Shown here: one piece after another, positions 86-22,621 of the stretch
How the letters are laid out: each line of letters begins with the position of its first letter
Position numbering within the stretch: position 1 is the first letter of the stretch
Assembly: GCA_963705305.1 (NCBI GenBank)
Contig: OY970067.1
Coordinates: 928,001 to 992,000, forward strand
DNA from: an uncultured Methylomirabilota bacterium
GTDB taxonomy: Bacteria; Methylomirabilota; Methylomirabilia; Methylomirabilales; 2-02-FULL-66-22
Direction of reading: 5' to 3'
DNA: 64,000 nt
Made by a program: the position numbers and the translations under genes
The notes under the pieces: model-generated
Seen by the model: the letters and a program-made list of their open reading frames with translations, nothing else
Told to the model about the DNA's origin: nothing
The model's database searches: none

Positions 86-270
86 CTAAGACGGCGCCCT
101 AATTGTCATTGACACTCCCCCAACCCTTCGATAGGCTCTCGCAGGCTAAATTCTGCATTCCAGCTCCCGATTCCGGGCGTCGCGTGCGGCGCGAGGGTAT
201 TCATTGCTAATACGCCGAAACCCTCATCGCGTGCGTTGCATCCGATCGCAAGCCTACAGGAGGAATGCGA

Positions 271-1365
271 ATGGCACTCCCAATTCGAGCCACACTTGAG
301 GACGTGAATCAAACCTGTACCTATCTCGCTACCAAGCCCACGGGCGCAACACTAAAGGATATTTCTGGTGTGCTTGGTGACAAACTCGCTGACGCCCGTC
401 GGATCAATGCTCTCGAAATGTGGGGCTTAATTCAGGCCCAGGACGAAGGCCGGTACAAAGTAACAGAAGATGGCCGAAGCTGTGCCAGAGGCGAAGACGA
501 CAAGAGGGCCGTTCTCCAGGCCGTAATCCGCCGCATACCAGCATATCTAGCCATTATCGAACGCGCCGCTCATCGACGAGAAGACGCCCTCACAACGGCA
601 GACGTTGGCTCCCACTGGCACGACCATTTCAAGGAACAAGCCAGTGAATCAGAGGACCAACTAAAATTGCAGGCTATCTCCTTTTTCCAAGTTGCTGAAG
701 GTGCAGGACTCGGTACGATGATTATCGGCCGGCGCGGTGCCCCTACTAGATTCAGCTTCAATACTGCGGCACTCGCCCAATTCGTCGGTGCTGCGCCGCC
801 GAGCATCAAAGACGCGCCAACCTCAACGCCAGCTGCCACCACAACCTCTCAGCTCACTCCAGACACAGAAAAAGGTGACATTACACCCCGCACCACGCCT
901 AGCCCCGGTGCTGGAACCGTTCCCCGCACCGGACAAGGAATCTTCATCGCGCATGGCAAGAACAAGAAGCCGCTGGAGCAATTGAAGAAGATCCTGGAGC
1001 AGTTCAAGATTCCCTACAAGATCGCCATCGAAGAGCCGAATCTCGGACGGCCGATCAGCGGTAAAGTCCGGGACATCATGGAATCCTGCAACTGCGCAAT
1101 ACTCGTTTTCACCGCTGACGAAGAACTCAAGACAAAGGCGGGTGAAACGATTTGGCGACCCAGTGAGAATGTCGTGTATGAACTTGGCGCGTCTGGTTAC
1201 CTGTATGACAATCGAATCGTGATTATGAAGGAGGAGGGGGTTACGTTCCCGGCCAACTTCAAAGATATCGGATACATCTCTTTTGACAAGGACCAGCTCG
1301 ACGCGAAAGCGATGGACATCTTGAAGGAGCTTATTGGTTTCGGCATCGTGAAGGTTTCGACATGA
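271..1365 (+). CDS. Protein with N-terminal winged-helix-like region, low-complexity linker and C-terminal TIR-like nucleotide-binding domain (CAP12/Pycsar-TIR type)
   Basis: IFIAHG...AILVFTAD...RPSENVVYELG...PANFKDIGYISF; AGGAGG at 258-263 (alternative ATG at 265). Confidence 0.85.
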   Translation: MALPIRATLEDVNQTCTYLATKPTGATLKDISGVLGDKLADARRINALEMWGLIQAQDEGRYKVTEDGRSCARGEDDKRAVLQAVIRRIPAYLAIIERAAHRREDALTTADVGSHWHDHFKEQASESEDQLKLQAISFFQVAEGAGLGTMIIGRRGAPTRFSFNTAALAQFVGAAPPSIKDAPTSTPAATTTSQLTPDTEKGDITPRTTPSPGAGTVPRTGQGIFIAHGKNKKPLEQLKKILEQFKIPYKIAIEEPNLGRPISGKVRDIMESCNCAILVFTADEELKTKAGETIWRPSENVVYELGASGYLYDNRIVIMKEEGVTFPANFKDIGYISFDKDQLDAKAMDILKELIGFGIVKVST

Positions 1366-1439: not shown

Positions 1440-1841
1440 ATGGAGGTTTTCGAAAGAGCGGTGGCAGCCAACGCCCTCTGGCTTGTGCCTGTCGTGCTCC
1501 TCCTTCTCCAGTTCGCTATGAAGCTATGGATCGGGGAAGGAATTAGCGGACTTGCTACATGGAGACAACTGCTTCAGTCTCCCGTGGAGATAGGTTTTCT
1601 TGCCCTGTCGTTCGTCGCATCCTTGGTAATTTCCAGTCCGACGAGAGCCAATCCAGCGTTTGTTACCTGCTTGATTTTCTTTGTCTTGCTCTTCGCCTCC
1701 ATTCTAATCTGGAAGCTATCACCAATCGCACTGAACGCTAGAGACATCAAAATTTCTTTCGCCCTATTTGCCCTCAACTCAGCCATCACAATTCCAATGC
1801 TTGTCTTTAGCATCAACATGCTAGTCGAGGGCAGGCCATGA
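1440..1841 (+). CDS. Small four-TM membrane protein
   Basis: Four hydrophobic stretches; stop overlaps the next start (ATGA). Confidence 0.75.
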   Translation: MEVFERAVAANALWLVPVVLLLLQFAMKLWIGEGISGLATWRQLLQSPVEIGFLALSFVASLVISSPTRANPAFVTCLIFFVLLFASILIWKLSPIALNARDIKISFALFALNSAITIPMLVFSINMLVEGRP

Positions 1842-2536
1842 GTGCCAATGACTTGCTTCTATACACGCTTCCGGCTCTAGTCGTTGGCCTAGTTGCTCTT
1901 CTCTTCTATGCGATTCGCCTCTCCGCACACTCCCGAGCAGAGTTAGAGTATCGCAGCGATACATTTAGACTTTCAATTGAAAAGCAAATCCAGCAACTCA
2001 CCGAGCAACTCCTTCAGAGTCGAGCTAGGTTTGAGAGCCTGAATCATCTACTTCTTGAAGCACAGCGCAGCCGCCGCGAACACCCCGCGTCTATAGCTGT
2101 TTCCACCTCGTTTTTCGAGGATCTAGGTGTCGACATCACCGCTTCAGTTGATCCCCGCCTTGTGTTCGTTCTTACGCCGTTCCACCCGGACTTTGATGAA
2201 GACTACAAAGTTATCAAACGCGCGCTGACGGATCAGCAATTCACCTGTACTAGAGGTGATGACGATCCCCACTCATCCAACATCCTGCCTTACGTTCTCA
2301 AGCAAGTAGCGAAGGCGCGCCTTGTAATCGCGAACATTTCAGGTCGAAATCCCAACGTCATGTACGAGCTCGGCATTGCGCACGCAATGGGAAAGCCGGT
2401 CCTCATGGTCTCCCGTAGCAGCGACGACATTCCCTTCGACCTCGCTAGCACCCGAATCCTGACCTACGAGGATTCATCCGACCTCGAAAAGGGACTCCGG
2501 AATTGGGTCGTCCATTCACTCGCCCGGTCGGCCTAA
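1838..2536 (+). CDS. TM + coiled-coil + nucleoside 2-deoxyribosyltransferase-like (NDT/TIR-like) domain protein
   Basis: VFVLTPF...TRGDD...ARLVIANISGRNPNVMYELGIAHAMGKPV. Confidence 0.8.
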   Translation: MSANDLLLYTLPALVVGLVALLFYAIRLSAHSRAELEYRSDTFRLSIEKQIQQLTEQLLQSRARFESLNHLLLEAQRSRREHPASIAVSTSFFEDLGVDITASVDPRLVFVLTPFHPDFDEDYKVIKRALTDQQFTCTRGDDDPHSSNILPYVLKQVAKARLVIANISGRNPNVMYELGIAHAMGKPVLMVSRSSDDIPFDLASTRILTYEDSSDLEKGLRNWVVHSLARSA

Positions 2537-2791: not shown

Positions 2792-2822
2792 AACGCGGGT
2801 TCGAATCCCGCTGGGGACACCA
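2792..2822 (+). other. 3' fragment of a tRNA (Glu-like); probable att-site remnant
   Basis: AACGCGGGTTCGAATCCCGCTGGGGACACCA = T arm, acceptor 3' strand and CCA; no D arm or anticodon arm upstream. Confidence 0.8.
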
Positions 2823-2953
2823 AGCATATATACCCCCATGTTGTCACTGAATCGCATTGCGAAATTTCGAGGAGTCGTGGCGGCATAGCGCGCCGGAGGT
2901 CCGGAGCGAATACGCTCGCCGAAAGCGCCCATTCACGTCAAAGGACCATCGAG

Positions 2954-3340
2954 ATGAAGAGGACGAAACGACTCCGAAAGCAACCAACGCATATCGAACT
3001 CCGCGTTGTCCTCACGTCGAACAGCGCGGCGGCAACGATTTCAGGAGACGGATCGTTCCACCAGATGCGCTTCAATGTATCCGGCGAGAAAGCTGCCGTC
3101 GAGTATCTCGGCCGAATGTTCGCAGACGAGGGCTGGTCGGGCTACGCGCCATTGGTCGGCGGTCCCTGGGGCGGGAAGATCGGACAGAGTCTCCCGAAGC
3201 TGCTCGAACGTCCTCGACCAACTGAATCACGACACGCCAGCCCGACTGCGCCAAGTGCCGTGCGCCACAGGTCAGCGTCCCGACGCACGGGGAGATGGCT
3301 GGCAGATTTCCCCTTGACGCGGCCGGGCGGGGGGTGCTAG
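2954..3340 (+). CDS. Hypothetical protein
   Basis: 128-aa ORF with AAGGA upstream; no recognised motif. Confidence 0.35.
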   Translation: MKRTKRLRKQPTHIELRVVLTSNSAAATISGDGSFHQMRFNVSGEKAAVEYLGRMFADEGWSGYAPLVGGPWGGKIGQSLPKLLERPRPTESRHASPTAPSAVRHRSASRRTGRWLADFPLTRPGGGC

Positions 3341-3456
3341 CGTCCCAGCCGTTCGTTTTGCCCTGCTGTGGTTCCCCCGGGTTGGCCCCACCACGGCCGT
3401 TCCTGCTTGGCCGGCCGTGGTTGTCAAGCCGGGCCGGTTTTCCAACTTCCTATCCG

Positions 3457-3679
3457 TTGGTCTTGCGGGTGACGTTGAATTGCGCTGCGAGCTCGTAGTC
3501 GCTGCCCGTGACCTTCTGGATCGCGGCGCGTGTCGCGGGCGTGGTCGTCGCGTTCTTGTGCAAGGCAATCATCATGTTCGGCCCCTCCTGTCGCATCCTA
3601 CCATGACAGCAAAGAGAACCTCTCAACCCATCAACAGCGGACGCTTGGATTGTAGAATCCAATCATCCGGAACTTGACA
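3457..3679 (-). mobile_element. IS481-family left-end remnant (terminal repeat plus first ~40 codons)
   Basis: MMIALHKNATTTPATRAAIQ...LAAQFNVT resembles IS481 N-termini; the end reads TGTCAAGTTCCGGATGATT on the minus strand. Confidence 0.7.
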
Positions 3680-3996
3680 GGTAGCAGACGAGCCTTATCG
3701 CGACAAAACCGTCGAAATCGCCTTGCTGGTCGTTTCCATCGCCTCTGTCCTCAACGGGTTGCAATGGAGGCGGAACTTATCGATATCGCAGCGTCATTTC
3801 ATGCAGATTTGGGTACCACACGAGCAATTCGAAGCGGCCCAGAAACCGCGGTGACGGGGTGTCCACCGAATCCTGGGAACTCCAGACCGGAGCAAGTGCG
3901 AGCAATAGGACAGTCGTCAGTCAGACTGTCCCCAGCGCTCATAATCGACGGAAGCCGAGTGTCAGCGCTTACTGCGCGCCGCAAGAAAAAGAGCAC

Positions 3997-5379
3997 ATGA
4001 AACGCCAACTCGCTGGAGGGATCTTAGCCAAAGAAGGTCGAGTACTGCTCGTCAGACCAGAGACAGGCAATCCAGCTGTAGATGAGATGTGGTCGCTGCC
4101 AACGGGAGAGATACGGGAACATGAGAGCGGTGAGCAGGCGTTGCTTAGGGTCGTGGAGGAGACGACAGGCCTGGATGTTCATATCTCTCGAGCGCTACTT
4201 GTACACGAATCGCCGGAGTTAGCGATCGCGCTATTCGAGGCGTCGATACTTGACAGCTCGCGCGCGCACGACGCGAGTCCTTTAGAGTGTGGCCTCTTTG
4301 CGTTCGATGATCTGCCGCAGCGAATCCTTATCGACAGCATGTTGTGCATTGCGAAATACCAAGTCATCAGCGCACACTTAGGTGAACACCCATTCAACAT
4401 CATTGATAGAGTGTTCGCGTCAATCTTTTACTCCCACTTAGCTCCACATCTTGGGCACTTCCGTCTCACAAACGACATCGAAGTCTACAAGTACATTGTA
4501 CTCAGCACGCCATATCGCAAGTTCAAGTCGGTCGTGCCATTTCTCTTGTCCAGGTGCGACGTTGCCAAGAACTATTTGTTTCTGATACCAGAGTTTTGTT
4601 TTGCAATATGGACGCTCTTGGATGATTGTCACGATGAGACATCGCACAGATATGGTCACAAGAGCGCGTTGCTGAACTTTGGCAAGCGAGCGTCATTGAT
4701 CGCATTGTTTAGATCGCTCCACAACATGACGGGCCTGCTCGATGGCGAGCTGTCATCACCAAGTGTAACGAAAATAGTCTCTGCCCTGAGTCAGTCCGCA
4801 TCGGTGCTACAACAGAGAGGCCAGAATGGCCTTGAAACAGACATCGACGCCTATCTGGGCCAGAGCACTGACAGGACAGAGTTCCTGCGAGCTGCGTGGG
4901 TCGGCGTGTTGGAGGAGACCGGCTACGACCCGGAGAAGCGCGACATACTCTGCGATGTTCAAAGGCGCTCTTCACGGATCGGTCAATTGATCAACGATTA
5001 CTTCGATATTGAACGAGACCAACTGCAGGACTTCGAGCAGAAGATAGCAAGCGCCCACTGGTTGTTGCTCTGCCGTCAGGCCGCTGAAGAAGACAGAGCC
5101 TTGTTACGTCAGCTATGGTCAGGAGTGGAAGGCGGCAGAGAACAATACCTCGCTCTCCTGGACAAGTACGACATAAGAAGTGTGTTGCGTCAGATGATTA
5201 GGGACGCGCTAGTCCGGATCGTCAGCCGCATTGAGGAGTCGGGGCTTGACACAGATGAGAAAGCCATTTTGATCGCTTGGCACCAGATGTCATTTGTCCA
5301 TTTCTACCGAGAGATCGATGACGTGAGTGTGTTGTCGTCCTTTCTTGCGTCGGTTGAGAACCTCTTGATCAAACGCTAG
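3997..5379 (+). CDS. NUDIX domain fused to a class-I isoprenoid synthase (polyprenyl synthetase-like) domain
   Basis: GGIL..EGRVLLVR...WSLPTGEIREHESGEQALLRVVEETTGL (degenerate Nudix box); LLDDCHDETSHRYG (DDxxD + RxG) and GQLINDYFD (second Asp-rich motif). Confidence 0.8.
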   Translation: MKRQLAGGILAKEGRVLLVRPETGNPAVDEMWSLPTGEIREHESGEQALLRVVEETTGLDVHISRALLVHESPELAIALFEASILDSSRAHDASPLECGLFAFDDLPQRILIDSMLCIAKYQVISAHLGEHPFNIIDRVFASIFYSHLAPHLGHFRLTNDIEVYKYIVLSTPYRKFKSVVPFLLSRCDVAKNYLFLIPEFCFAIWTLLDDCHDETSHRYGHKSALLNFGKRASLIALFRSLHNMTGLLDGELSSPSVTKIVSALSQSASVLQQRGQNGLETDIDAYLGQSTDRTEFLRAAWVGVLEETGYDPEKRDILCDVQRRSSRIGQLINDYFDIERDQLQDFEQKIASAHWLLLCRQAAEEDRALLRQLWSGVEGGREQYLALLDKYDIRSVLRQMIRDALVRIVSRIEESGLDTDEKAILIAWHQMSFVHFYREIDDVSVLSSFLASVENLLIKR

Positions 5380-5446
5380 CCTCTCTGAGGTGCTCACGTG
5401 CCACCCACGGTGTTCGCTAGCTTAGCCAAGACTAGGAGGCACATTT

Positions 5447-8400
5447 GTGCCTATGGATCATAAGTCAGATCTAGGAGCTAAGATCCGCGCAGGTCGAGCC
5501 ATCCTCATCGCTGGCACCGGTGTCTCTATCGCAGCCAGCGTCGATGCTAGGACGAATCGATCACATCCCCAGGCATCGTGGGCCGGACTTTTGGAAGACG
5601 GGTTGGAGTGGCTCAAAGAGCACAAGCACATGGACCCTGAGGAGGCCGATGCCCACTTGAAGCTGCTCAGGACGAATCCGAAGACCCACCGTTTCATTTC
5701 CGCAGCCGAAGACATTACGGTCCGAATGGGTGGCGCTTCGTCGGATCATTTTAGGGACTGGCTTGCGCGAACCATTGGCACCATCGAAGGTCACGATCGG
5801 AGTGTTCTCGATGCCTTGCATGAGGTTCGACAGCATGGAAATCTACTAGCCACGACCAACTACGACAGCCTACTGCTTGGTGATTCGCCGACGCTCAACC
5901 CCATCACTTGGCAAGAAACCGACGCCCTCATCGGCGCGGTCCGAGACGGGCAGACGGACAAGATCATCTTCCTCCACGGCTGGTGGCGCAAACCCGAGTC
6001 CGTTATCCTCGATTGGAGATCGTATAACCAGATCACGCGCAACGATGTCTACCGCGAAGATTTGGCGGCATTCTGGAATACGAATACGTGGGTGTATGTC
6101 GGCTGCGGCGTCAATGGCCTGTCCGATCCCGACTTCGGTCTTCTGTTGGAACGCTACGGCGAGCGCGCTCGTAATGCCCAGCATTGGGACTTCTGTTTGG
6201 TGTGCGGAGAAGCTCAGCGGTGTGAGTTTCAGGCACACTTCGATACGTGCAGATTCAACATCCGCGCCGTCTCGTATGGCGAGAGCCGTTCGGACTTGTC
6301 CGCCTATCTCCGCTCGCTCCTGCAAGCACCAATCAACACAACGATTCCGGCACCGGCAGATCCCCTACGCGATGAACTGACCAAAGACTTTCCGCTTCAA
6401 GAGTACTACAAGATCACGACATCCCTGACACCATTCCCTGGTCTCGGTCATTTCAAGGAGGAGGACGCGCGGCTGTTCTTTGGCCGCACAGCCGAGACGC
6501 TGAGGCTCTGGCGAGCCGTGCAGGGGTTTCCTTTGGTGCTTCTATACGGCCAGTCCGGTGTTGGTAAGTCCTCGCTCCTCCGCGCAGGCTTTGTTCCGCG
6601 CGTCCCACCCGATACCAAGCTAGAATGCCTCACCCGAAACAAGTCTGTCGGATACCACAAACAACTGGCCTCGCTTCTGGCCGCACTCGGCCGAGGACGG
6701 ACGGTGGTGGTGCTTGACCAATTGGAGGAAATCTACATCGATAGGGGGGACGACTGGAGGAGTGAAGCAGCTGAATTGTGGCAGACACTGGCCAAGGGAC
6801 TATCCGACCACCCGTTTTTGACGACCCTCTTATCGTTTCGTAAGGAATATTATGCGGACGTACGGGATTCCCTCAACCAGCACGAGATCTCTTGGAGAAG
6901 CGAGCAGGAGATACACCTTTTGCCGCTCAATGCCGAAGGGATTCGCGAAGCCATTGAAGGGGTTGCGAAAAATCAGTATTTGCAGAATCTTTTTCACCTA
7001 AGGGTCGGCGACGGTATGGCCGACGCCCTGGTGGCCGACTTACTCGACGACGAAAGCTTAGAATCGCCCATTGGACCCCTCCTGCAGTATCAGCTAAGCA
7101 AGCTGTGGGACGATGCCCGGTCGAAACGCCGAAGCGACGCCGACTGGATCGACCTTAGCCTCGATCAGTATAGGTCCCTGCGCAGCAGGACGCTCGATGA
7201 TCTGCTTGATGATCAGCTGGCTGAAGTTGCATCCGCATGGCCCACATTTGTGACCAACGGCCTAGCGTTGGATGTGCTGCATTCCTACACAACCGACCTG
7301 GACACCGCCAAGGCTCAGGTCGAGCAAGACGTTGAGAACCGCTACAGCCACATTGAAGGCATCCCAGACTTCTTCGCGTGGTTGACGAAGAACCTGCTCT
7401 TGCTACTGCACGATGGGACTAGTGAGAGACGAACTGTTCGGCTTGCACATGACTGCCTCGCGCCCGTGATTCGTCGACGCTTTCAATGTTCGAATGCGCC
7501 CGGACAGCGAGCCGCTAGACTCGTGAAGGCCAAGCCCGGGGAGGTGACGTTCAGTGAGTCTGACGTTGAGACGATCCGCAAGGGTCGACTTGGCATGGGC
7601 AAGATCGATGCTGAGGTCATGCTCCAGGTGGAACGAGACGCGTCGAAATACCGCGATCAGCGGCGGCGGCGAGTCCACGACGCGATCCAGAACGCGGAAG
7701 TGTGCCTACAACAGCTGCGATTCAAACAAAGCTTGAGACACCTCCAGGAGGCCGTCTCAGTTGGAGAGCCTGATCAGAGGATCTGGGACGTGGCTCTGGA
7801 GTTGACGTATCCATTGAGGGATCTCGATTGGACAAGCGAGTTGGAGGAGACGATCGCCTTGCTAGGAGAGCACGGCTCGAGGCCGCTGGCCGAAAGCGCA
7901 ACGGTGGACCGGTTCTACCCAGTGATGGTCTACGTCACGGGCGGCGACTTCAAAATGGGGAGCGAGGACGAACTAGCCTACGAGGACGAAGGACCCGTCC
8001 ACGACGTTCATCTGAGCAGCTTCCTCATGTCTGCGACGCCGGTCACGTGGTGGCAGTTTGGCCTGTTCTGTCTGCGGACCGACCGCCCGCTTGCCAGCGA
8101 CGCCGGATTCGGACGAGGAGAAAGGCCAGCGATCAACGTGAAGTGGCTCGATGCCGTTGACTATTGTATTTGGCTGACGAAGACAGTAGGGGAAGTCGGA
8201 GGGAAACAGCTGCAGCAGGTCTACACGAGAGACGGAAAGAACGTAACAGCCGACTTCGACCAGAACGGCTTCCGCCTGCCTACGGAGGCTGAATGGGAAT
8301 ACGCTGCGAGAGAGATGGGTCAAACCAAGCGCTTTGGTAACGGAATGGATGTGGCTGATCCGGCACAGATGAATTTCGACGCCGGGCATGAACTAAATGA

Positions 8401-8731
8401 ACGGACGCCGGGGTGGTGCAGGCAAGGTAAGTCGCTCGACATGACGACCGTAGTCAGAAATTATAAGCCCAATGCCTTGGGATTGTACGACATGAGCGGT
8501 AACGTGTTCGAGTGGTGCTGGGATTGGTGGAGCAAGGGAGACGACACTCCCTTTTACCGCACGAAAGACGCAGCGTGCGATCCACTAGATCCAACGTCTA
8601 AAGAGCGCAGAGTGGTTCGCGGAGGGTCATGGCAAAGTACCGCCTTCCTTTGCCGGTGTTCGTACCGATGGAGGTTCAATCCAGCGCATAGGTTCAGTAA
8701 TCTCGGATTCCGGGTCGTTCGCCGGCCGTGA
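5447..8731 (+). CDS. SIR2-like + STAND (nSTAND1-type) NTPase + FGE-sulfatase/SUMF1 domain protein
   Basis: AGTGVS, TTNYD, FLHG, VGCG..LSDPDF; PFPGL..F...FFGR, GQSGVGKSS, VVVLDQLEE, LAHD; FKMGS, FRLPTEAEWEYAAR, PNALGLYDMSGNVFEWC, RVVRGGSW, LGFRV. Confidence 0.92.
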   Translation: MPMDHKSDLGAKIRAGRAILIAGTGVSIAASVDARTNRSHPQASWAGLLEDGLEWLKEHKHMDPEEADAHLKLLRTNPKTHRFISAAEDITVRMGGASSDHFRDWLARTIGTIEGHDRSVLDALHEVRQHGNLLATTNYDSLLLGDSPTLNPITWQETDALIGAVRDGQTDKIIFLHGWWRKPESVILDWRSYNQITRNDVYREDLAAFWNTNTWVYVGCGVNGLSDPDFGLLLERYGERARNAQHWDFCLVCGEAQRCEFQAHFDTCRFNIRAVSYGESRSDLSAYLRSLLQAPINTTIPAPADPLRDELTKDFPLQEYYKITTSLTPFPGLGHFKEEDARLFFGRTAETLRLWRAVQGFPLVLLYGQSGVGKSSLLRAGFVPRVPPDTKLECLTRNKSVGYHKQLASLLAALGRGRTVVVLDQLEEIYIDRGDDWRSEAAELWQTLAKGLSDHPFLTTLLSFRKEYYADVRDSLNQHEISWRSEQEIHLLPLNAEGIREAIEGVAKNQYLQNLFHLRVGDGMADALVADLLDDESLESPIGPLLQYQLSKLWDDARSKRRSDADWIDLSLDQYRSLRSRTLDDLLDDQLAEVASAWPTFVTNGLALDVLHSYTTDLDTAKAQVEQDVENRYSHIEGIPDFFAWLTKNLLLLLHDGTSERRTVRLAHDCLAPVIRRRFQCSNAPGQRAARLVKAKPGEVTFSESDVETIRKGRLGMGKIDAEVMLQVERDASKYRDQRRRRVHDAIQNAEVCLQQLRFKQSLRHLQEAVSVGEPDQRIWDVALELTYPLRDLDWTSELEETIALLGEHGSRPLAESATVDRFYPVMVYVTGGDFKMGSEDELAYEDEGPVHDVHLSSFLMSATPVTWWQFGLFCLRTDRPLASDAGFGRGERPAINVKWLDAVDYCIWLTKTVGEVGGKQLQQVYTRDGKNVTADFDQNGFRLPTEAEWEYAAREMGQTKRFGNGMDVADPAQMNFDAGHELNERTPGWCRQGKSLDMTTVVRNYKPNALGLYDMSGNVFEWCWDWWSKGDDTPFYRTKDAACDPLDPTSKERRVVRGGSWQSTAFLCRCSYRWRFNPAHRFSNLGFRVVRRP

Positions 8732-8827
8732 GCTCACTTTATCCCTGCATTGTCTGCTTGACGTGCGAGTCGGGTGGTCGTGGCACCGTACCTCAGCCCT
8801 CTCCCCGGACAGCGATGTGTGATCGTC

Positions 8828-9862
8828 ATGGATTTCTCGAGAGCTTCGTTTGATAGACACAAGCACGTTTTTGTGTCGCTAAATGATCATTGCAACAGGC
8901 GATGCACCTATTGTTACCTGACTGAGGAATCACTATCTCGCTCGAAGCCGGTTGACGCGTCGGCGTTAATCCGTGGTCTGACTCGTCTATATAAAGAGCA
9001 TGAGTTTAGGCTCGTCACAATCGCTGGTGGCGAGCCCGGCCTCGTGTCTAACGTCTCGACGGTGGTTGAGGCAATAGCCGATATCGGGTACAGCGTCATT
9101 ATTAACACGAATGGCACGTTGGGCCCTAAAGGTATTCGTGAGATTCGGAAGTGCAACATAAAGGCAATATCCTTCAGCCTTGATAGTTGTGATAGAGGCG
9201 TCAACGACCGGCTGCGTTTCTCTGGCAGCTGGGACCTGGTTCAGAAAGGCGTGCTGCGTTGCAAGGAGGAAGGAATTCCGGTACGAATCTCGGCTGTGGT
9301 GTGCACGCTGAATCAGCACGAGGTGTCTCGCCTGTTCGAGTGGTGTAACGCCGTGGGTGTTGAGGTGTTGAACATCCACGAGTTGGACATTTCGGTAGAT
9401 CCGCAGTTTCTCGGGCCACTGAAACTGTCGCCGGCTGATTGGCGAGAGTTGGTGCGCAAGCTAGTGGTTGAGTTACGCGACAAACAAAGTTACACCGCGC
9501 TGAGAATGCCGATTTCGTACCTTACAGAGTTGGAGTCGAAGCGCATCGCTGAACATCAGCTGTCATGTCCCGCGACACACAACGACACGTTGTGCGTGTC
9601 GCCACATCTGTCGACGTATCGGTGTCCCTTGCTGATAAATCGGCGCAAAGTATCGTACAAGGAGCTCGACGATGCATTGGAGACGGAGCCATTGGACGGA
9701 TTGGAAGCGAACTATGGCTCCGCGCGCTGTCCGTTGTCCGGAGCGGGAGGCGGCGATGCACCTGGGCTGATCGATGCGTGCAAGTTGGTAAAAGTGACAA
9801 TCAACCGAGCCGGCGGTGCTTCGAATACACCGATGTGGGCTGACATCCTAGGACAGTTCTAG
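8828..9862 (+). CDS. Radical SAM protein with Cys-rich C-terminal (twitch/SPASM-like) extension
   Basis: CNRRCTYC, AGGEP, NTNG, SLDS; C-terminal C..C..YRC..CP..C. Confidence 0.9.
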   Translation: MDFSRASFDRHKHVFVSLNDHCNRRCTYCYLTEESLSRSKPVDASALIRGLTRLYKEHEFRLVTIAGGEPGLVSNVSTVVEAIADIGYSVIINTNGTLGPKGIREIRKCNIKAISFSLDSCDRGVNDRLRFSGSWDLVQKGVLRCKEEGIPVRISAVVCTLNQHEVSRLFEWCNAVGVEVLNIHELDISVDPQFLGPLKLSPADWRELVRKLVVELRDKQSYTALRMPISYLTELESKRIAEHQLSCPATHNDTLCVSPHLSTYRCPLLINRRKVSYKELDDALETEPLDGLEANYGSARCPLSGAGGGDAPGLIDACKLVKVTINRAGGASNTPMWADILGQF

Positions 9863-10032
9863 GGTGCGTCTTGCCCGAATAGTTCTCCGACAGCAGCTCG
9901 CAGTGTGTTACCTGGATCCGTGTTCGCGCGCACCGAGGCGCCTACCCCGTGCGTCCAGCGCTCGGGAGACCTCATCGACCGCGTCGAGCACGTTCTGCGC
10001 GAAATCAGTAATCCGGGACGTTGCCAAGCAAT

Positions 10033-10611
10033 TCACGGAGCGGCCGTGAGCAGTCGCTCCCACCGCGCGCGCTCCACGCGGCCGCGCGCTACCGCCTGGG
10101 ACACCGCCTGGGGGGAGACCCCGAGGACGGGAGCCCGGGGCCCCGCGGGGTGCCCGCCCACCGCCACCCAGCGGGAGGCGATGCCGGCCCGGGCGCGCGC
10201 CACCGCGCCGGGGCCCCCCCGCCAGGGCAGCCCGCCCCAGACCGCCCTGGCGGCAGCCCCGGGCCGTGCGGGGCGCCCCCCGGAGGGCGGGTCTGCGGAC
10301 CGGGGCGGCCGACGCCCCCGCCGGCTGCCGCTGCGCCGCAAACGCCGCCCGGCCGCGGATCCGCGCATCCCCGCGATCCGCCGCGCGCGGGCGGGGGCCG
10401 CACTGCCCAAGGCTGGTCCGCGTGTCTCGCCAGGCCCGGGGGCCCGTTCCCCCGAGCGCGCTGTGGCCGGTCCAGGGGCAGCGGGCGAGCGTCCGGAGCG
10501 CGGGCACGCCGTTCGCGCGGCGCGGGTGGAGGTGCAGGTAGCGGACGCGGTCCCGGAGGGAGGGCGCCGCCGCCACCACGAAGGACGTGTCGCGGTTCTG
10601 GGGAACGCCCG
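10033..10611 (-). pseudogene. C-terminal remnant of a REP-associated tyrosine transposase (RAYT, Y1 HUH)
   Basis: VRYLHLHPRRA..PWTGHSAL matches the RAYT YLHLNPLRA region seen at 17970-18000; frameshifted and heavily substituted. Confidence 0.8.
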
Positions 10612-11733: not shown

Positions 11734-12069
11734 TCAGGGGTTTTTTTTATCCGGCTGCGCGAGCACCTGCCGGAGCCGCTCCGTCTGCTGCAGGACGGTG
11801 AGCTGGGCCTGCAGCTCCTGGGTCTGGCGTCGGAGGGCCGCCTTCTCCAGGTCGTGCGGCTGCGCCGACCGCCCCTGGCCCCGGTTGCCCAGGGCCGCGA
11901 CCATCGCCGCCAGGGCCCGGCGCTCCCACTTGGAGTCCGTCTTGCGGGAGACCCCCAGCTGCCGGGCGGCTTCCTGGGCACTCACCACCCCGCTCCGCGC
12001 CTGCATGATCAGCTGCGCCCGTTGCCGGGCCAGGGCTTGCTGGTGGGGACTGGCCGTCGGCTCGCGCAT
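11734..12069 (-). CDS. HTH protein ending in an A8 tract
   Basis: SAQEAARQLGVSRKT..KWE; ends GAT AAA AAA AAC CCC TGA. Confidence 0.75.
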   Translation of the reverse strand: MREPTASPHQQALARQRAQLIMQARSGVVSAQEAARQLGVSRKTDSKWERRALAAMVAALGNRGQGRSAQPHDLEKAALRRQTQELQAQLTVLQQTERLRQVLAQPDKKNP

Positions 12070-13633
12070 CGCGTCCTCCCGCCCCGCGGGCCTTCTCTAC
12101 TTGGTGGGCGGCGGTGGGGCTTTCGATTCCTGGAGCTTGGTGAGCCGCTGCTCCAGTCGGGCCAGGCGGCTCTGCTGCTGCAGGGCTTGCCGCGCGAGCA
12201 GGCGCTCCAGCTTCGGGCTCAGCGCGGGGCCCGGGTCGCGGCGCGTCGGCGCCGCCAGCGCCTGGAGCATCGCTGCTAGCGCCCGCTGTTCCCACTGGGC
12301 GAGCACCTTCGGGCTGATCGCCAGCTCCTGGCAGACCTCCCCCGGGCGCCGCCGCTCGGTCCAGAGCGACAGCACCGCCTGCACGCGCTGCTGGGCATTG
12401 TATCGCAGCGGGTCCGGTTTGGCTGGGATTTCCGTGCTCACGGGCCCCTCCTTCCAGGTCGTAGGTCACCTCCTGCTGTGGTCGCGATTCCTCGCCATCG
12501 ACGAGCATCTTCACGCGGCCCTTCTCCGCCCGGATCACCACCGACTGCTCGCCCAGCCGGCCCACCATGTAGAAGGGGCTCTGGGGCTGCCCGCGGAGCG
12601 CGAGCTCGAGCACGTTCTCCTGGATGCCCCGCTCGATCACCTGCCGGAGCTCCTGGGCGATGCCGAAGAAGCGATCCGCCGGGCAGAGCCCCTCCAGGGC
12701 CTGGTGGGGCCGCCGGTGGTTGTCGTGCGTCCCCCAGAGCCGGATCCGCTCGCCGGCCGCCTCGAAGCTCTCGAACTGGGCGCGCGCCAGGAACTCCTCC
12801 CAGATCGTCTTCCAGAAGCGCTCCAGCTTGCCCAGGGTCATGGGGTGGTGCGGGCGGCTCTTGATGTGGTGCACCCGATCCTTCCGGAGCTCCGCCTCGA
12901 ACCGGGTGGTCCCGCGCCAGCTGGAGAACTGCCGGCCCTGGTCGGAGAGCAGCTCCTTGGGGACCCCGTACTCCGCCACCGCCCGGCGGTACACTTCCAG
13001 GACGTGCTCCGCCGTCTGGCTGCGGAAGACGTCCAGCCCCACCACGTAGCGGGAGTGGTCGTCGAGGAAGCCGATCAGGTAAGCGTTCTTGCCGCCCAGG
13101 CGGAAGGTGAAGATGTCGGTCTGCCAGAGCTGGTTCGGCGTGGCGCGCTCGAAGAAGCGCGGTCGGGCCGGGTTCCGCTGGGGTTTGGGGCGTGGCTTCT
13201 TGAGGAGCTGGTGCGCGTGCAGGGTGCGGCGCACCGTCTCCCGGCTCACCGGCAGGCACAGCACGCGCCGCAGGAACTGGCTGATCTTCTGGATCCCCGC
13301 CTCGGGGTGGCGCCGCTTGAGGGCGACGACCTCCGCCTTCACCGCCGGGGCCACTTTCGGGCGCTGCCGGTGCGGCCGTGTCGGCTTCGCCTGCAGGCCC
13401 GCTTCCCCCTCGGCGCGATACCGGCGCACCCACGCCCCGAGCGTACTGAAGCCGACGCCGAGTTCGCGGGCGACCTGCTTGGGGGGGAACCCTTCCTCCA
13501 GGCAGAGCTGCACCGCTTTGCGCCGGACCTCGAACGGGTGGACGTGGGGGTGCGCCCCACCCGCCCGCCGCGTTGCCTTCCGCGGCCCCCGGCTCTGCTT
13601 CCGCCTCCCTCCTGCCTTGCCGATCCTCTCCAT
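11747..13633 (-). CDS. IS481-like DDE transposase; low-complexity C-terminal tail overlaps the two small ORFs
   Basis: HTH (VARELGVG), FERATPNQLWQTD, LDDHSRY, LLSDQGRQF, GKLERFW, NHRRPHQAL; AAAGGAG upstream. Confidence 0.9.
   Translation of the reverse strand: MERIGKAGGRRKQSRGPRKATRRAGGAHPHVHPFEVRRKAVQLCLEEGFPPKQVARELGVGFSTLGAWVRRYRAEGEAGLQAKPTRPHRQRPKVAPAVKAEVVALKRRHPEAGIQKISQFLRRVLCLPVSRETVRRTLHAHQLLKKPRPKPQRNPARPRFFERATPNQLWQTDIFTFRLGGKNAYLIGFLDDHSRYVVGLDVFRSQTAEHVLEVYRRAVAEYGVPKELLSDQGRQFSSWRGTTRFEAELRKDRVHHIKSRPHHPMTLGKLERFWKTIWEEFLARAQFESFEAAGERIRLWGTHDNHRRPHQALEGLCPADRFFGIAQELRQVIERGIQENVLELALRGQPQSPFYMVGRLGEQSVVIRAEKGRVKMLVDGEESRPQQEVTYDLEGGAREHGNPSQTGPAAIQCPAARAGGAVALDRAAAPGGGLPGAGDQPEGARPVGTAGASSDAPGAGGADAPRPGPRAEPEAGAPARAASPAAAEPPGPTGAAAHQAPGIESPTAAHQVEKARGAGGRDARADGQSPPASPGPATGAADHAGAERGGECPGSRPAAGGLPQDGLQVGAPGPGGDGRGPGQPGPGAVGAAARPGEGGPPTPDPGAAGPAHRPAADGAAPAGARAAG
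12097..12441 (-). CDS. Small HTH/coiled-coil accessory protein
   Basis: YNAQQRVQAVLSLW...EVCQELAIS..VLAQW; GGAGG upstream. Confidence 0.65.
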   Translation of the reverse strand: MSTEIPAKPDPLRYNAQQRVQAVLSLWTERRRPGEVCQELAISPKVLAQWEQRALAAMLQALAAPTRRDPGPALSPKLERLLARQALQQQSRLARLEQRLTKLQESKAPPPPTK

Positions 13634-21025: not shown

Positions 21026-22621
21026 ATGAATCTATTCCTGGCCCATATCGCCGATGCCAATTACTCGCGCCTTCTGCCTGACAGGCTGAATCGAGCCACG
21101 GAGGACACTGGGCGTGTCAAGATCATGGCGTTTCCGCCGCTGGGGATCCAGACATTGGCGCCGGTGCTGCGGGAGCGCGGACATGGAGTTCGCCTGTTTG
21201 ACACGGGCCATCCGCAGATGAAGCCGCAGCACATCGCCCAGGAGGCGCAGCGGCAGCGCCCGCATGCGATCGGGCTTTCGTTTGTCTCCACGACGACTTA
21301 CCCGGCGACCAAGGAGGCGGCGCGGGTGCTCAAGTCGGCGGCGCCGGAGATTCCGATCATCATCGGCGGCGCGTTTGCGACCGTGAACGCGGACCGCATC
21401 CTCACCGATTGCCGGTGCATCGACGCCGTGGGCGTCGGCGAGGGTGAGGAGCTGCTGCCGGAGTACCTGGAGCATCTCAATACCCCCGGGAGCGTGGCGG
21501 GCCTGGTGTGGCGCCGCGGAGAGGAGGTCATTCGCAATCTCCCGCGGCCTCTCTTGCGTGACCTGGACAACTATCCGTATCCCGATCGAACCAGCCTGCC
21601 GATCGACTACATCGAGTCGCTGCCGCTGGATGTGCCGGCGGCATTGTCGCTGGACAAATTCTGCACGATGCAAACGTCGCGGGGCTGTCCGTATCACTGC
21701 ATTTACTGCGATATTCCGTCGCTGTCCGAGGGCAAATGGCGCAGCCGCTCGCCCGAGCATGTGCTGGGAGAGATGCAGCAGATCAACGACCTGGGCTATC
21801 GCTCGGTGTACCTCACCGACGACCATTTCCTGATCAACCGCCAGCGCATCAGCGCCATCTGCGACGGCATCGTCAGTCGCAAGCTCGAATTCCGCTGGGG
21901 CTGCGAAGGCCGGGTCGATGCCGGCGCCGTCGACCAGTTGCCCGCCATGAAGCAGGCCAACTGCGGAGCGCTGGCGTTTGGCGTGGAGGCGGGCACGCAG
22001 AAGATCCTCGACCGCCTGCGGAAAGATCAGACCCTGGAGCAGGTCGAGCGCGCCGTGAGCGAGGCCAAGCGATCGGGGATCAGGTGGCTTCACGGGTTCT
22101 TCGTCCTGGGCTGTCCGGATGAGATCGCCGCCGACATCCGCGCCAGCTTCCGGTTCGCCGCCCGGCTGCAACTCGACACGTTCGGCTTCAACCGCCTGTG
22201 CGCCTACCGGGGCACGCCGCTGTGGCAGGAGTATGTCGACCGCGGGATCATCGATGACGATCGGGACTGGCAGAAGTGGTTCAAGTGCTCGGACATCGAT
22301 CCGACGGCGCTGCCGGGCGAAGAGGTGAACCGGCTGCGGATGACGGGATATGCGTCGCTGTTTGCGCGGCGGAGCATCAGCCGGCCCATCCGCACGTTCC
22401 AGCTCATCCGGAGCTTTGAGCGGCACATGGAGACGAGGGATCTGATCACCCTGCTGGGCTCGCCGTTCCGCCGGCGCCGGCTGACGCGCGAGCCCGACCT
22501 GCCGGCAAAGATGCTGGACCAGGGATTGAAGGCGCCGATTCGCGGGGCGGGGGCGTCGAACCATGCCCTCGGAAGGAATGGCGGGAAGGGGAGCCAGGGG
22601 AATGCGCCGCTTGGCGGTTGA
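21026..22621 (+). CDS. B12-binding radical SAM protein
   Basis: PPLG, IIIGG, GEGE, TSRGCPYHCIYC, GVEAG, YRGTPL. Confidence 0.92.
   Translation: MNLFLAHIADANYSRLLPDRLNRATEDTGRVKIMAFPPLGIQTLAPVLRERGHGVRLFDTGHPQMKPQHIAQEAQRQRPHAIGLSFVSTTTYPATKEAARVLKSAAPEIPIIIGGAFATVNADRILTDCRCIDAVGVGEGEELLPEYLEHLNTPGSVAGLVWRRGEEVIRNLPRPLLRDLDNYPYPDRTSLPIDYIESLPLDVPAALSLDKFCTMQTSRGCPYHCIYCDIPSLSEGKWRSRSPEHVLGEMQQINDLGYRSVYLTDDHFLINRQRISAICDGIVSRKLEFRWGCEGRVDAGAVDQLPAMKQANCGALAFGVEAGTQKILDRLRKDQTLEQVERAVSEAKRSGIRWLHGFFVLGCPDEIAADIRASFRFAARLQLDTFGFNRLCAYRGTPLWQEYVDRGIIDDDRDWQKWFKCSDIDPTALPGEEVNRLRMTGYASLFARRSISRPIRTFQLIRSFERHMETRDLITLLGSPFRRRRLTREPDLPAKMLDQGLKAPIRGAGASNHALGRNGGKGSQGNAPLGG

Follow-up and report, generated by a model that had tools for sequence, protein, structure and literature searches.

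Avs5 (AVAST type 5) joins a SIR2 NADase at its N-terminus, a central STAND NTPase, and a sensor at its C-terminus in one chain, and is presumed to be activated by oligomerisation, with depletion of NAD+ as the outcome. Prokaryotic viperins, which are radical S-adenosylmethionine (SAM) enzymes encoded in defence islands, produce a modified nucleotide with antiviral action. In addition, nSTAND1 proteins with lectin sensors of the formylglycine-generating enzyme (FGE) type, together with TIR, peptidase, or EAD modules, have been predicted to be conflict systems, as set out in passages of Kaur et al. (2020, PMC7159879) and Dore et al. (2024, PMC10907252). The locus considered here occupies positions 3997 to 9862 of a 64,000-nucleotide stretch of DNA (hereafter, the window) from an uncultured Methylomirabilota bacterium (assembly GCA_963705305.1, contig OY970067.1, positions 928,001 to 992,000 of the forward strand). 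It encodes a protein that fuses a NUDIX domain to a prenyl-diphosphate-synthase fold (g1), a receptor-like SIR2-nSTAND1-FGE protein (g2), and a radical SAM enzyme (g3). We read this cassette as an undescribed multi-gene variant of NLR-like (Avs/nSTAND) abortive-infection defence, on the strength of three observations made on the sequence: the domain anatomy of the predicted proteins, the co-inheritance of the three families, and the swapping of effectors. From these we infer anti-phage defence, the chemistry of the enzymes, and the role of their product. Our preferred interpretation, to which we would give somewhat less than an even chance, is that the three genes form a single defence system, in which g1 and g3 would together produce a molecule derived from a prenyl diphosphate and possibly linked to a nucleotide, and this molecule would act alongside the receptor.

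Open reading frame (ORF) analysis finds all three genes intact on the + strand (Table 1), with gaps of 67 nt between g1 and g2 and 96 nt between g2 and g3; an earlier note on this DNA, which described three intact co-oriented genes with these spacings, was exact in its coordinates. A promoter and terminator scan returned sites no more frequently than in shuffled sequence, and a predicted g1-g3 complex scored 0.00, which gives no verdict in either direction.

The g1 and g3 families are very rare: among 5.8 billion clusters, g1 has 11 other clusters and g3 has nine close ones. Assignments of their members to the same contig are mostly made through source contigs of identical size in base pairs and not through DNA that was read, the exception being metagenome locus L001. 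On this basis, homologs of all three genes occur together on three contigs, of 14819 bp (g1 P0010, g2 P0037, g3 P0023), 11739 bp (P0014, P0038, P0024), and 10914 bp (P0013, P0035, P0025). The g1 and STAND genes are paired on two more, among them a 43072-bp contig (P0012, P0036), and g1 and g3 on one more, a 4289-bp contig (P0011, P0022) that is too short for g2. Each of the nine trio proteins, as well as P0011, is found on exactly one contig, with one source per trio. Six DNAs of at least 10 kb carry g1 (the contigs of 14819, 43072, 10914, 11739, and 10632 bp, and the window itself); five of these six carry a STAND-FGE orthologue and four of six carry g3. Viewed from the other genes, all four STAND orthologues of 50-52% identity on contigs of at least 10 kb have g1 on the same contig, and the g3 orthologues on contigs of this length (3/3) have both partners. 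The earlier note would have taken a complete lack of co-occurrence among homologs of the three genes as a refutation; with the trio on three contigs and pairs on others, that outcome did not arise.

The linkage spans considerable divergence. Identity between clades is similar for all three proteins (g1, 44-49%; STAND-FGE, 50-52%; g3, 53-58%), and in a peat metagenome of another study (run X2) pieces of g1, the FGE region of g2, and g3 are present at ~96-98% identity. The 4289-bp contig leaves no room for a STAND gene between g1 and g3 and so has a different gene order; as g1 and g3 are found there without an intervening STAND gene, the linkage survives a change in gene order. L001, the single locus returned by a metagenome scan for g1 relatives, was read as DNA and has a g1 orthologue followed by a gene for a protein with alpha/beta-hydrolase, EAD8, and nSTAND1 domains. 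No g1 relatives were recovered from the 54 candidate stretches of a genome-contig scan or the 158 of a viral-contig scan. A scan of genome contigs for STAND-FGE (1/64 parts, swamped by generic FGE motifs) yielded 79 loci, of which only L013 matches the NTPase part; these generic-FGE loci (1.2 Mb) contain no g1 or g3 homolog and serve as a control only. Locus L061 comes from a Streptomyces genome, G031; across 401 genomes of that genome's class the A4 profile had no match at E<=1e-12, although the ability of this query to match there was not checked.

The earlier note had described g2 as a SIR2-STAND-FGE protein with a lectin-like fold, and both parts of that description stand. The three regions score above their Pfam cut-offs (SIR2_2, 32.6 bits against 24.5; nSTAND1, 103.4 against 27.1; FGE-sulfatase, 173.4 against 23.3), and the best Protein Data Bank (PDB) match of the FGE domain is TvpA, a variable protein of a diversity-generating retroelement (DGR), at 2.3e-25. 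Residues of the nSTAND1 Walker A (G-GKSS of GxxGxGKSS) and Walker B (D-Q-E of hhhhDQxEE) motifs are invariant in all 17 sequences. For the SIR2 region, the best solved relative is human FAM118B (E 9.4e-14), in which TTNFD and IHG align with the TTNYD and HG motifs of g2. Passages of the FAM118 study (PMC12700824) describe a filament-forming, NAD-processing protein, report that mutation of its active-site His or Asn abolishes NAD processing, and link FAM118 proteins to antiphage sirtuins. The vertebrate protein described there stands alone, without NTPase or lectin domains, unlike g2.

The N-terminal effector of this protein differs from locus to locus. From residue 291 (161 in P0037) to the end, g2 (P0002) is 51% identical to the TIR-bearing orthologue P0037, whereas the SIR2 and TIR effectors that precede this region are unrelated. 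Together with L001, one orthologous STAND-FGE chassis is therefore seen with SIR2, with TIR, or with alpha/beta-hydrolase and EAD8 modules; such an effector swap fits an immune receptor.

At the other end of the protein, the FGE domain is its most conserved part. Members of the cassette group are 55-66% identical in this domain, 49-53% in the NTPase, and 41-47% in the linker. In the sister proteins for which neither g1 nor g3 was found, FGE identity is still 47-59%, with the NTPase at 31-45%. As the domain is equally conserved in proteins lacking g1 and g3, the sensor probably binds something common to the cassette and sister groups, and a receptor that reads the g1/g3 product is disfavoured. 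Two other roles for the domain were considered and rejected. An active-site Cys pair is the defining feature of a catalytic formylglycine-generating enzyme; in the alignment of g2 to the solved FGE 6s07, only one of these two positions is retained, the first Cys being aligned and the second replaced by Arg. A DGR-diversified sensor would call for a template repeat, and blastn (word size 7) of positions 7901-8731 against the whole genome matches only the region itself; the high conservation of the domain also argues against diversification.

The description of g1 in the earlier note as a NUDIX-isoprenoid synthase fusion is supported by a Pfam NUDIX match, a prenyl-synthase fold, and the invariant DDCHD motif. 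The NUDIX domain matches PF00293 at 31.3 bits (cut-off 21.1) and is modelled by AlphaFold2 with a predicted local distance difference test score (pLDDT) of ~86-93 across the domain; the whole model has pLDDT 87 and a predicted template modelling (TM) score of 0.89. Its top Foldseek matches are all trans-prenyl diphosphate synthases (Rv0562, OPPS, GGPPS, HepPPS), with target-normalised TM scores of 0.72-0.75 and E of 3.5e-7 to 1e-5. With Rv0562 of M. tuberculosis, the octaprenyl-PP synthase of E. coli, and similar enzymes, g1 shares the fold, the first DDxxD motif followed by R-Y-G, and a second motif of the form Q-x-x-(N)D-x-x-D. It differs in that the isoprenoid-synthase half of the window protein is without any Pfam match, PF00348 at E<=0.1 included (among 39 wider-family members, scores for this model range from below to above the 27-bit cut-off), in that its second Asp-rich motif is NDYFD, with Asn for the first Asp family-wide, and in an invariant Trp four residues before DDxxD. 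All 12 aligned sequences retain RKFKS, W-T-x-L-DDCHD followed by R-Y-G, R-T-x-F-L, and G-Q-L-I-NDYFD, and the prenyl-domain motifs are kept across the wider family too; these resemble the diphosphate- and Mg-binding motifs of prenyl synthases.

Translation of g1 truly begins with the ATG at 3997, since all relatives that align there share Met1 and 10 of 11 relatives align over ~91% of the length. The remaining one is the database copy of this very gene (P0004, 346 aa), which was annotated too short and begins after the NUDIX domain; because the frame is open from 3997 onwards and conserved over that part, the fusion has probably been overlooked in the existing gene call. A search with a prenyl-domain profile brings up a wider family, whose representatives number 171 at E<=1e-3, 44 at E<=1e-10, and 27 at E<=1e-30, and an N-terminal NUDIX domain is present in 19 of the 39 members examined. 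NUDIX with PF00348 also appears in large Atlas clusters, a lead only; unlike an isopentenyl diphosphate (IPP) isomerase, the g1 NUDIX is MutT-like, matching only MutT or NTP-pyrophosphatase-type NCBIfam models (in g1, P0010, and P0015) and MutT-type PDB structures. Type 1 IPP isomerase (IDI) was rejected as its identity, with no IDI model matched by these three proteins and no invariant Cys in the NUDIX part. The three Glu of the Nudix box have a role in NUDIX hydrolases. The window's g1 departs from the consensus Gx5Ex7REUxEExGU, with one of the three Glu in place, and the canonical RExxEE is found in none of the six members of the window's clade, compared with 24 of 27 other family members. 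The domain in this clade is therefore probably a binding module that is no longer hydrolytic.

The g3 protein belongs to the radical SAM superfamily (PF04055, 74.4 bits against 29.5), and its core matches solved radical SAM enzymes in fold comparisons. The CNRRCTYC (CxxxCxxC) motif and C247, C266, C301, and C318 are invariant in all 10 sequences. Scores against NCBIfam models all fall short of the cut-offs, with 81.7 bits against 284 for MoaA, 59.3 against 180 for the viperin model NF038283 (viperin_w_prok), and 40-60 bits for many peptide-maturase models. On these scores, g3 belongs to no named family, and identification as a viperin was rejected. Relatives beyond the nine orthologues are only 27% identical and are unnamed as well. 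The AlphaFold2 model is poor (pLDDT 62), with the C-terminal ~100 residues unmodelled (pLDDT <50); in this same region, where SPASM/twitch enzymes have an auxiliary Fe-S cluster domain, the spacing of the four Cys differs from the canonical SPASM pattern. Fold matches to this poor model are mixed—SuiB, SkfB, anSME, PqqE, BlsE, viperins, tetraether synthase, and MoaA—and do not separate peptide-, nucleotide-, and lipid-acting relatives. The start of the protein (MDFS..) is invariant in 10 of 10 orthologues; the opening octapeptide, MDFS(R/K)(A/P)SF, hardly varies despite overall identities of 53-78%. Such constancy is uncommon at an N-terminus, and the stretch may be an interaction or recognition motif.

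Taken as one system, these parts suggest the following scheme. The g2 protein would be an NLR-like STAND receptor whose C-terminal lectin-fold, FGE-type domain binds a trigger; on binding, the nSTAND1 NTPase would drive oligomerisation of g2, which would switch on the N-terminal SIR2 domain, so that NAD+ is destroyed and the infected cell is stopped. We infer these receptor steps from what is known of Avs proteins, those of the SIR2-STAND type among them. The g1 and g3 proteins would be a dedicated enzyme pair: g1, with a nucleotide-binding NUDIX domain fused to its diverged trans-prenyltransferase part, would take up an allylic prenyl diphosphate in the site of that part, and g3 would supply radical SAM chemistry. 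Most likely, the pair would make a modified isoprenoid or a prenylated nucleotide that, like viperin products, may give the cell a second, chemical line of defence or an auxiliary one beside the receptor. The conservation of the FGE domain in the sister proteins favours this arrangement, in which the receptor works by itself and g1 and g3 provide parallel or auxiliary chemistry. Active-site motifs are kept throughout (SIR2 TTNYD/HG, Walker A and B, DDxxD/RYG/NDxxD, and CxxxCxxC with four further Cys), and the setting is one of defence, with TIR-type genes immediately upstream and a low-GC (guanine plus cytosine) island not found in 30 relatives.

Several findings weigh against this interpretation. 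No g3 orthologue was found for the 43072-bp contig, and neither partner was found for P0015 (10632-bp contig); moreover, co-occurrence is for the most part deduced from equal-sized contigs rather than from sequence. Nine sister STAND-FGE proteins (P0039-P0047, 40-43% identity), two of which are on contigs of more than 2 Mb, match no contig with g1 or g3, so that a STAND-FGE receptor can evidently work alone. With the degenerate Nudix box of the window's clade, nucleotide hydrolysis cannot be an essential step here. Finally, g3 falls below every family cut-off and cannot be modelled in its C-terminal part.

The sister proteins lend themselves to a different account, that the cassette consists of two independent units that travel together: a self-sufficient Avs-like g2 and a separate module of g1 and g3, for defence or as a small biosynthetic pair, linked by co-transfer in defence islands. 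The 4289-bp contig, where g1 and g3 are neighbours with no STAND gene in between, is consistent with such a module, as is an FGE domain no more specific to the cassette group than to its sisters. In the wider NUDIX-prenyl-synthase family (the 27 representatives at E<=1e-30), seven source contigs were checked and match none of g2 or g3. However, the trio recurs at ~50% protein identity, in low- and high-GC hosts, with three effector types and in two gene orders, and within the narrow g3 family every long contig has g1 and the STAND gene as well; genes that are neighbours in an island by chance do not normally stay together across such divergence. We therefore consider independent units unlikely, though they retain a small but real chance.

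If the three genes do belong together, the STAND protein could instead read the small molecule made by g1 and g3, either as a constitutive "all is well" ligand lost on infection or as a messenger induced by it. The conserved linkage of the three genes would suit a guard of this kind; lectin/FGE folds bind small ligands in EgtB and OvoA (both weak matches), and the degenerate NUDIX could be a ligand-binding module. The pattern of FGE conservation, in the sisters as well as in the cassette group, points rather to a common ligand than to a cassette-specific product. Of the roles that the earlier note had offered for the g1/g3 product, sensing by the STAND protein is thus the one weakened, and we regard it as distinctly unlikely.

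A further account makes the enzymes agents of protein or peptide maturation, with g1 prenylating a residue, as ComQ prenylates ComX, and a SPASM/twitch-like g3 cross-linking or oxidising the target, which would be the STAND protein or a protein of the invader. The peptide-acting enzymes among the best g3 fold matches (SuiB, SkfB, anSME, PqqE) and the 40-60-bit scores with peptide-maturase models accord with this, and a precedent is found in passages of Kaur et al. (2020, PMC7159879), where peptide-modifying accessory modules, including a radical SAM enzyme, occur in related conflict systems. Nevertheless, there is no small precursor ORF in the 67- and 96-nt gaps, nothing is conserved upstream in L001, the nucleotide- or nucleoside-acting viperin, MoaA, and BlsE match g3 about equally well, and the NUDIX fusion points to a nucleotide. 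Maturation is accordingly improbable, and auxiliary small-molecule chemistry beside the receptor remains our preferred interpretation.

Table 1. Positions in the window of the cassette, its domains, and the flanking features
Feature	Position	Strand	Basis or remark
g1: NUDIX - trans-isoprenyl-diphosphate-synthase-like fusion, 460 aa	3997..5379	+	ORF; start ATG
g1 NUDIX domain, MutT-like, degenerate Nudix box RVVEETTGL	3997..4371	+	PF00293
g1 prenyl-diphosphate-synthase-fold domain; DDCHD, RKFKS, RYG, NDYFD motifs	4381..5376	+	Foldseek and alignment
Ribosome-binding site AGGAGG, 7 nt 5' of g2 GTG	5434..5439	+	Sequence
g2: SIR2 - nSTAND1 NTPase - FGE/C-type-lectin protein, 1094 aa	5447..8731	+	ORF and Pfam; start GTG
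g2 putative SIR2 effector module, residues 1-290, TTNYD and LHG motifs	5447..6316	+	PF13289
g2 nSTAND1 NTPase, Walker A GQSGVGKSS, Walker B VVLDQLEE	6431..7459	+	PF20703
g2 putative FGE-sulfatase/C-type-lectin-fold sensor domain, non-catalytic	7919..8722	+	PF03781
g3: radical SAM enzyme, 344 aa, Cys-rich C-terminal part	8828..9862	+	ORF; start ATG; Pfam PF04055
TIR-type ORF upstream, intact, CAP12/Pycsar-type TIR	265-1365	+	PF10137, 59.5 bits; PADLOC candidate PDC-S35, 66 bits
Second TIR-type ORF upstream, intact	1838-2536	+	PADLOC TIR effector model, E 1.8e-9; weakly Nuc_deoxyrib_tr
Orphan tRNA 3' end (T-arm, acceptor, CCA), likely integration scar at left edge of island	2795..2822	+	Sequence context
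Multi-copy ~600-bp repeat, right boundary of cassette	10005..10601		82% GC (0.818); copies elsewhere
rve transposase ORF right of cassette	11747-13633		Pfam

The cassette is also set apart from its surroundings by composition. GC is 0.52-0.60 over positions 4001-10000, compared with 0.70-0.82 immediately downstream, 0.64-0.82 in the next 3.5 kb as a whole, and a genome mean of 0.66, in agreement with the AT-richer composition reported in the earlier note. A comparison with 30 relatives, of which 18 belong to the same genus, gave no match to the cassette DNA (the result is the same without G026), indicating on sequence grounds that the cassette is a recent acquisition, presumably by horizontal transfer. 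On the left, the orphan tRNA 3' fragment is likely an integration scar: a 25-mer from it recurs at two other distant sites in the genome, its sequence is present in many relatives at 91-100% identity, and no full tRNA gene is found anywhere in the window. The ~1.1 kb between this fragment and g1 (2857-4000) holds short ORFs only, without a Pfam match. Within it, ~170 bp at 3299-3470, overlapping a 98-aa minus-strand ORF (3272-3568) with no Pfam match, are repeated in several genomes of the same genus at 69-76% identity and may be mobile-element debris. On the right, the boundary repeat has 99% identical copies at two other genome sites, several copies of 73-75%, and copies of 70-82% in relatives of the same genus; the long ORFs on both of its strands match nothing in Pfam or PADLOC. 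The earlier note's picture of decayed neighbours needs one correction, as the two upstream TIR-type ORFs are intact. An unassigned 140-aa ORF (1419-1841) sits between these two, and the three are probably a separate defence unit; genes still further upstream, beyond the window, are metabolic. The window has another radical SAM gene, unrelated to g3, 11 kb downstream and outside the low-GC island (21026-22621, +); its product also has a B12-binding domain (PF02310 and PF04055).

A role outside immunity, in which the genes form a specialised isoprenoid or secondary-metabolite pathway and the STAND protein has a regulatory or other cellular function, could draw on the NUDIX-polyprenyl-synthase fusions of ordinary isoprenoid metabolism (the Atlas clusters named as IDI family being a lead only) and on the absence of matches to known defence models beyond the domain level, yet it is very unlikely given the lack of a DNA-binding output domain in g2, the location of the locus in a mobile low-GC island beside TIR genes, and the swapping of SIR2, TIR, and hydrolase modules on a STAND chassis, which is typical of conflict systems as described in passages of PMC7159879 and PMC10907252.

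The preferred reading of a single three-gene defence system would, if correct, have several consequences. STAND/NLR-like receptors are usually single-gene, so one that is conserved together with two enzymes of its own would combine sensing and chemistry in a new way. We could find no described defence system containing a prenyl-diphosphate enzyme, and the extreme rarity of the g1 and g3 families, neither of which has a name, makes it probable that they yield a natural product not seen before. A bolder version, in which bacterial immunity has a further chemical branch based on isoprenoids and an NLR-like receptor is functionally coupled to prenyl-diphosphate and radical SAM enzymes making a previously unknown prenylated or radical-modified nucleotide, either antiviral or a self-made ligand that arms or restrains the receptor, is doubtful, with a modest chance of being right. 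Nature has already exchanged the effectors and, in one clade, lost the Nudix box, which provides ready-made comparisons, and the compact cassette (5.9 kb) would be simple to synthesise and assay.

In keeping with the earlier note, which knew of no described system of this composition, PADLOC gave domain-level matches only, and no system of NUDIX-prenyl-synthase, radical SAM, and STAND genes was found in PADLOC, NCBIfam, or the literature searched, a scope that did not include the source tables of Kaur et al. (2020), which could list such neighbourhoods. Among receptors, g2 shares with Avs5 and other SIR2-STAND proteins the arrangement of effector, STAND NTPase, and sensor in one polypeptide, with intact Walker A and B motifs. 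It differs from Avs5 in its nSTAND1-family NTPase, in a sensor of the FGE-type lectin kind instead of a repeat array, and in its two co-inherited enzyme genes; PADLOC at E<=0.1 matched no Avs model to g2, only LmuA (18.7 bits, on the SIR2 part). The fit to the nSTAND1/FGS(FGE)-lectin conflict systems is closer. There, according to passages of Kaur et al. (2020, PMC7159879) and Dore et al. (2024, PMC10907252), the C-terminal lectin is proposed to sense invaders and N-termini are TIR, peptidase, or EAD modules; g2 fits this plan with its variable N-terminal effector, and its relative in L001 carries EAD8. As described in these passages such systems are often DGR-diversified, whereas g2 has no template repeat and its lectin domain is the best conserved part. 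The same passages contain no prenyl enzyme; Nudix occurs in them once, in another context in Kaur et al., and is absent from those of Dore et al., and the sole radical SAM passage in Kaur et al. concerns FtsH ternary systems.

Among enzymes, prokaryotic viperins (pVip) match g3 weakly (PADLOC, 70 bits; solved viperins, E ~3e-6). The g3 protein differs from them in its sub-cut-off score, in MoaA/SPASM models that score equally well or better, in its extra Cys-rich C-terminus, and in its partners. Ophion, which combines radical SAM, PHP, and PRTase genes (bioRxiv 10.1101/2025.09.30.679545), lacks a STAND receptor, a prenyl enzyme, and NUDIX, and its partners are unrelated to g1 and g2. However, it is a validated three-gene defence system built around a radical SAM enzyme that is not a viperin, together with enzymes of nucleotide metabolism, and in this respect no other known system comes as near to the cassette.

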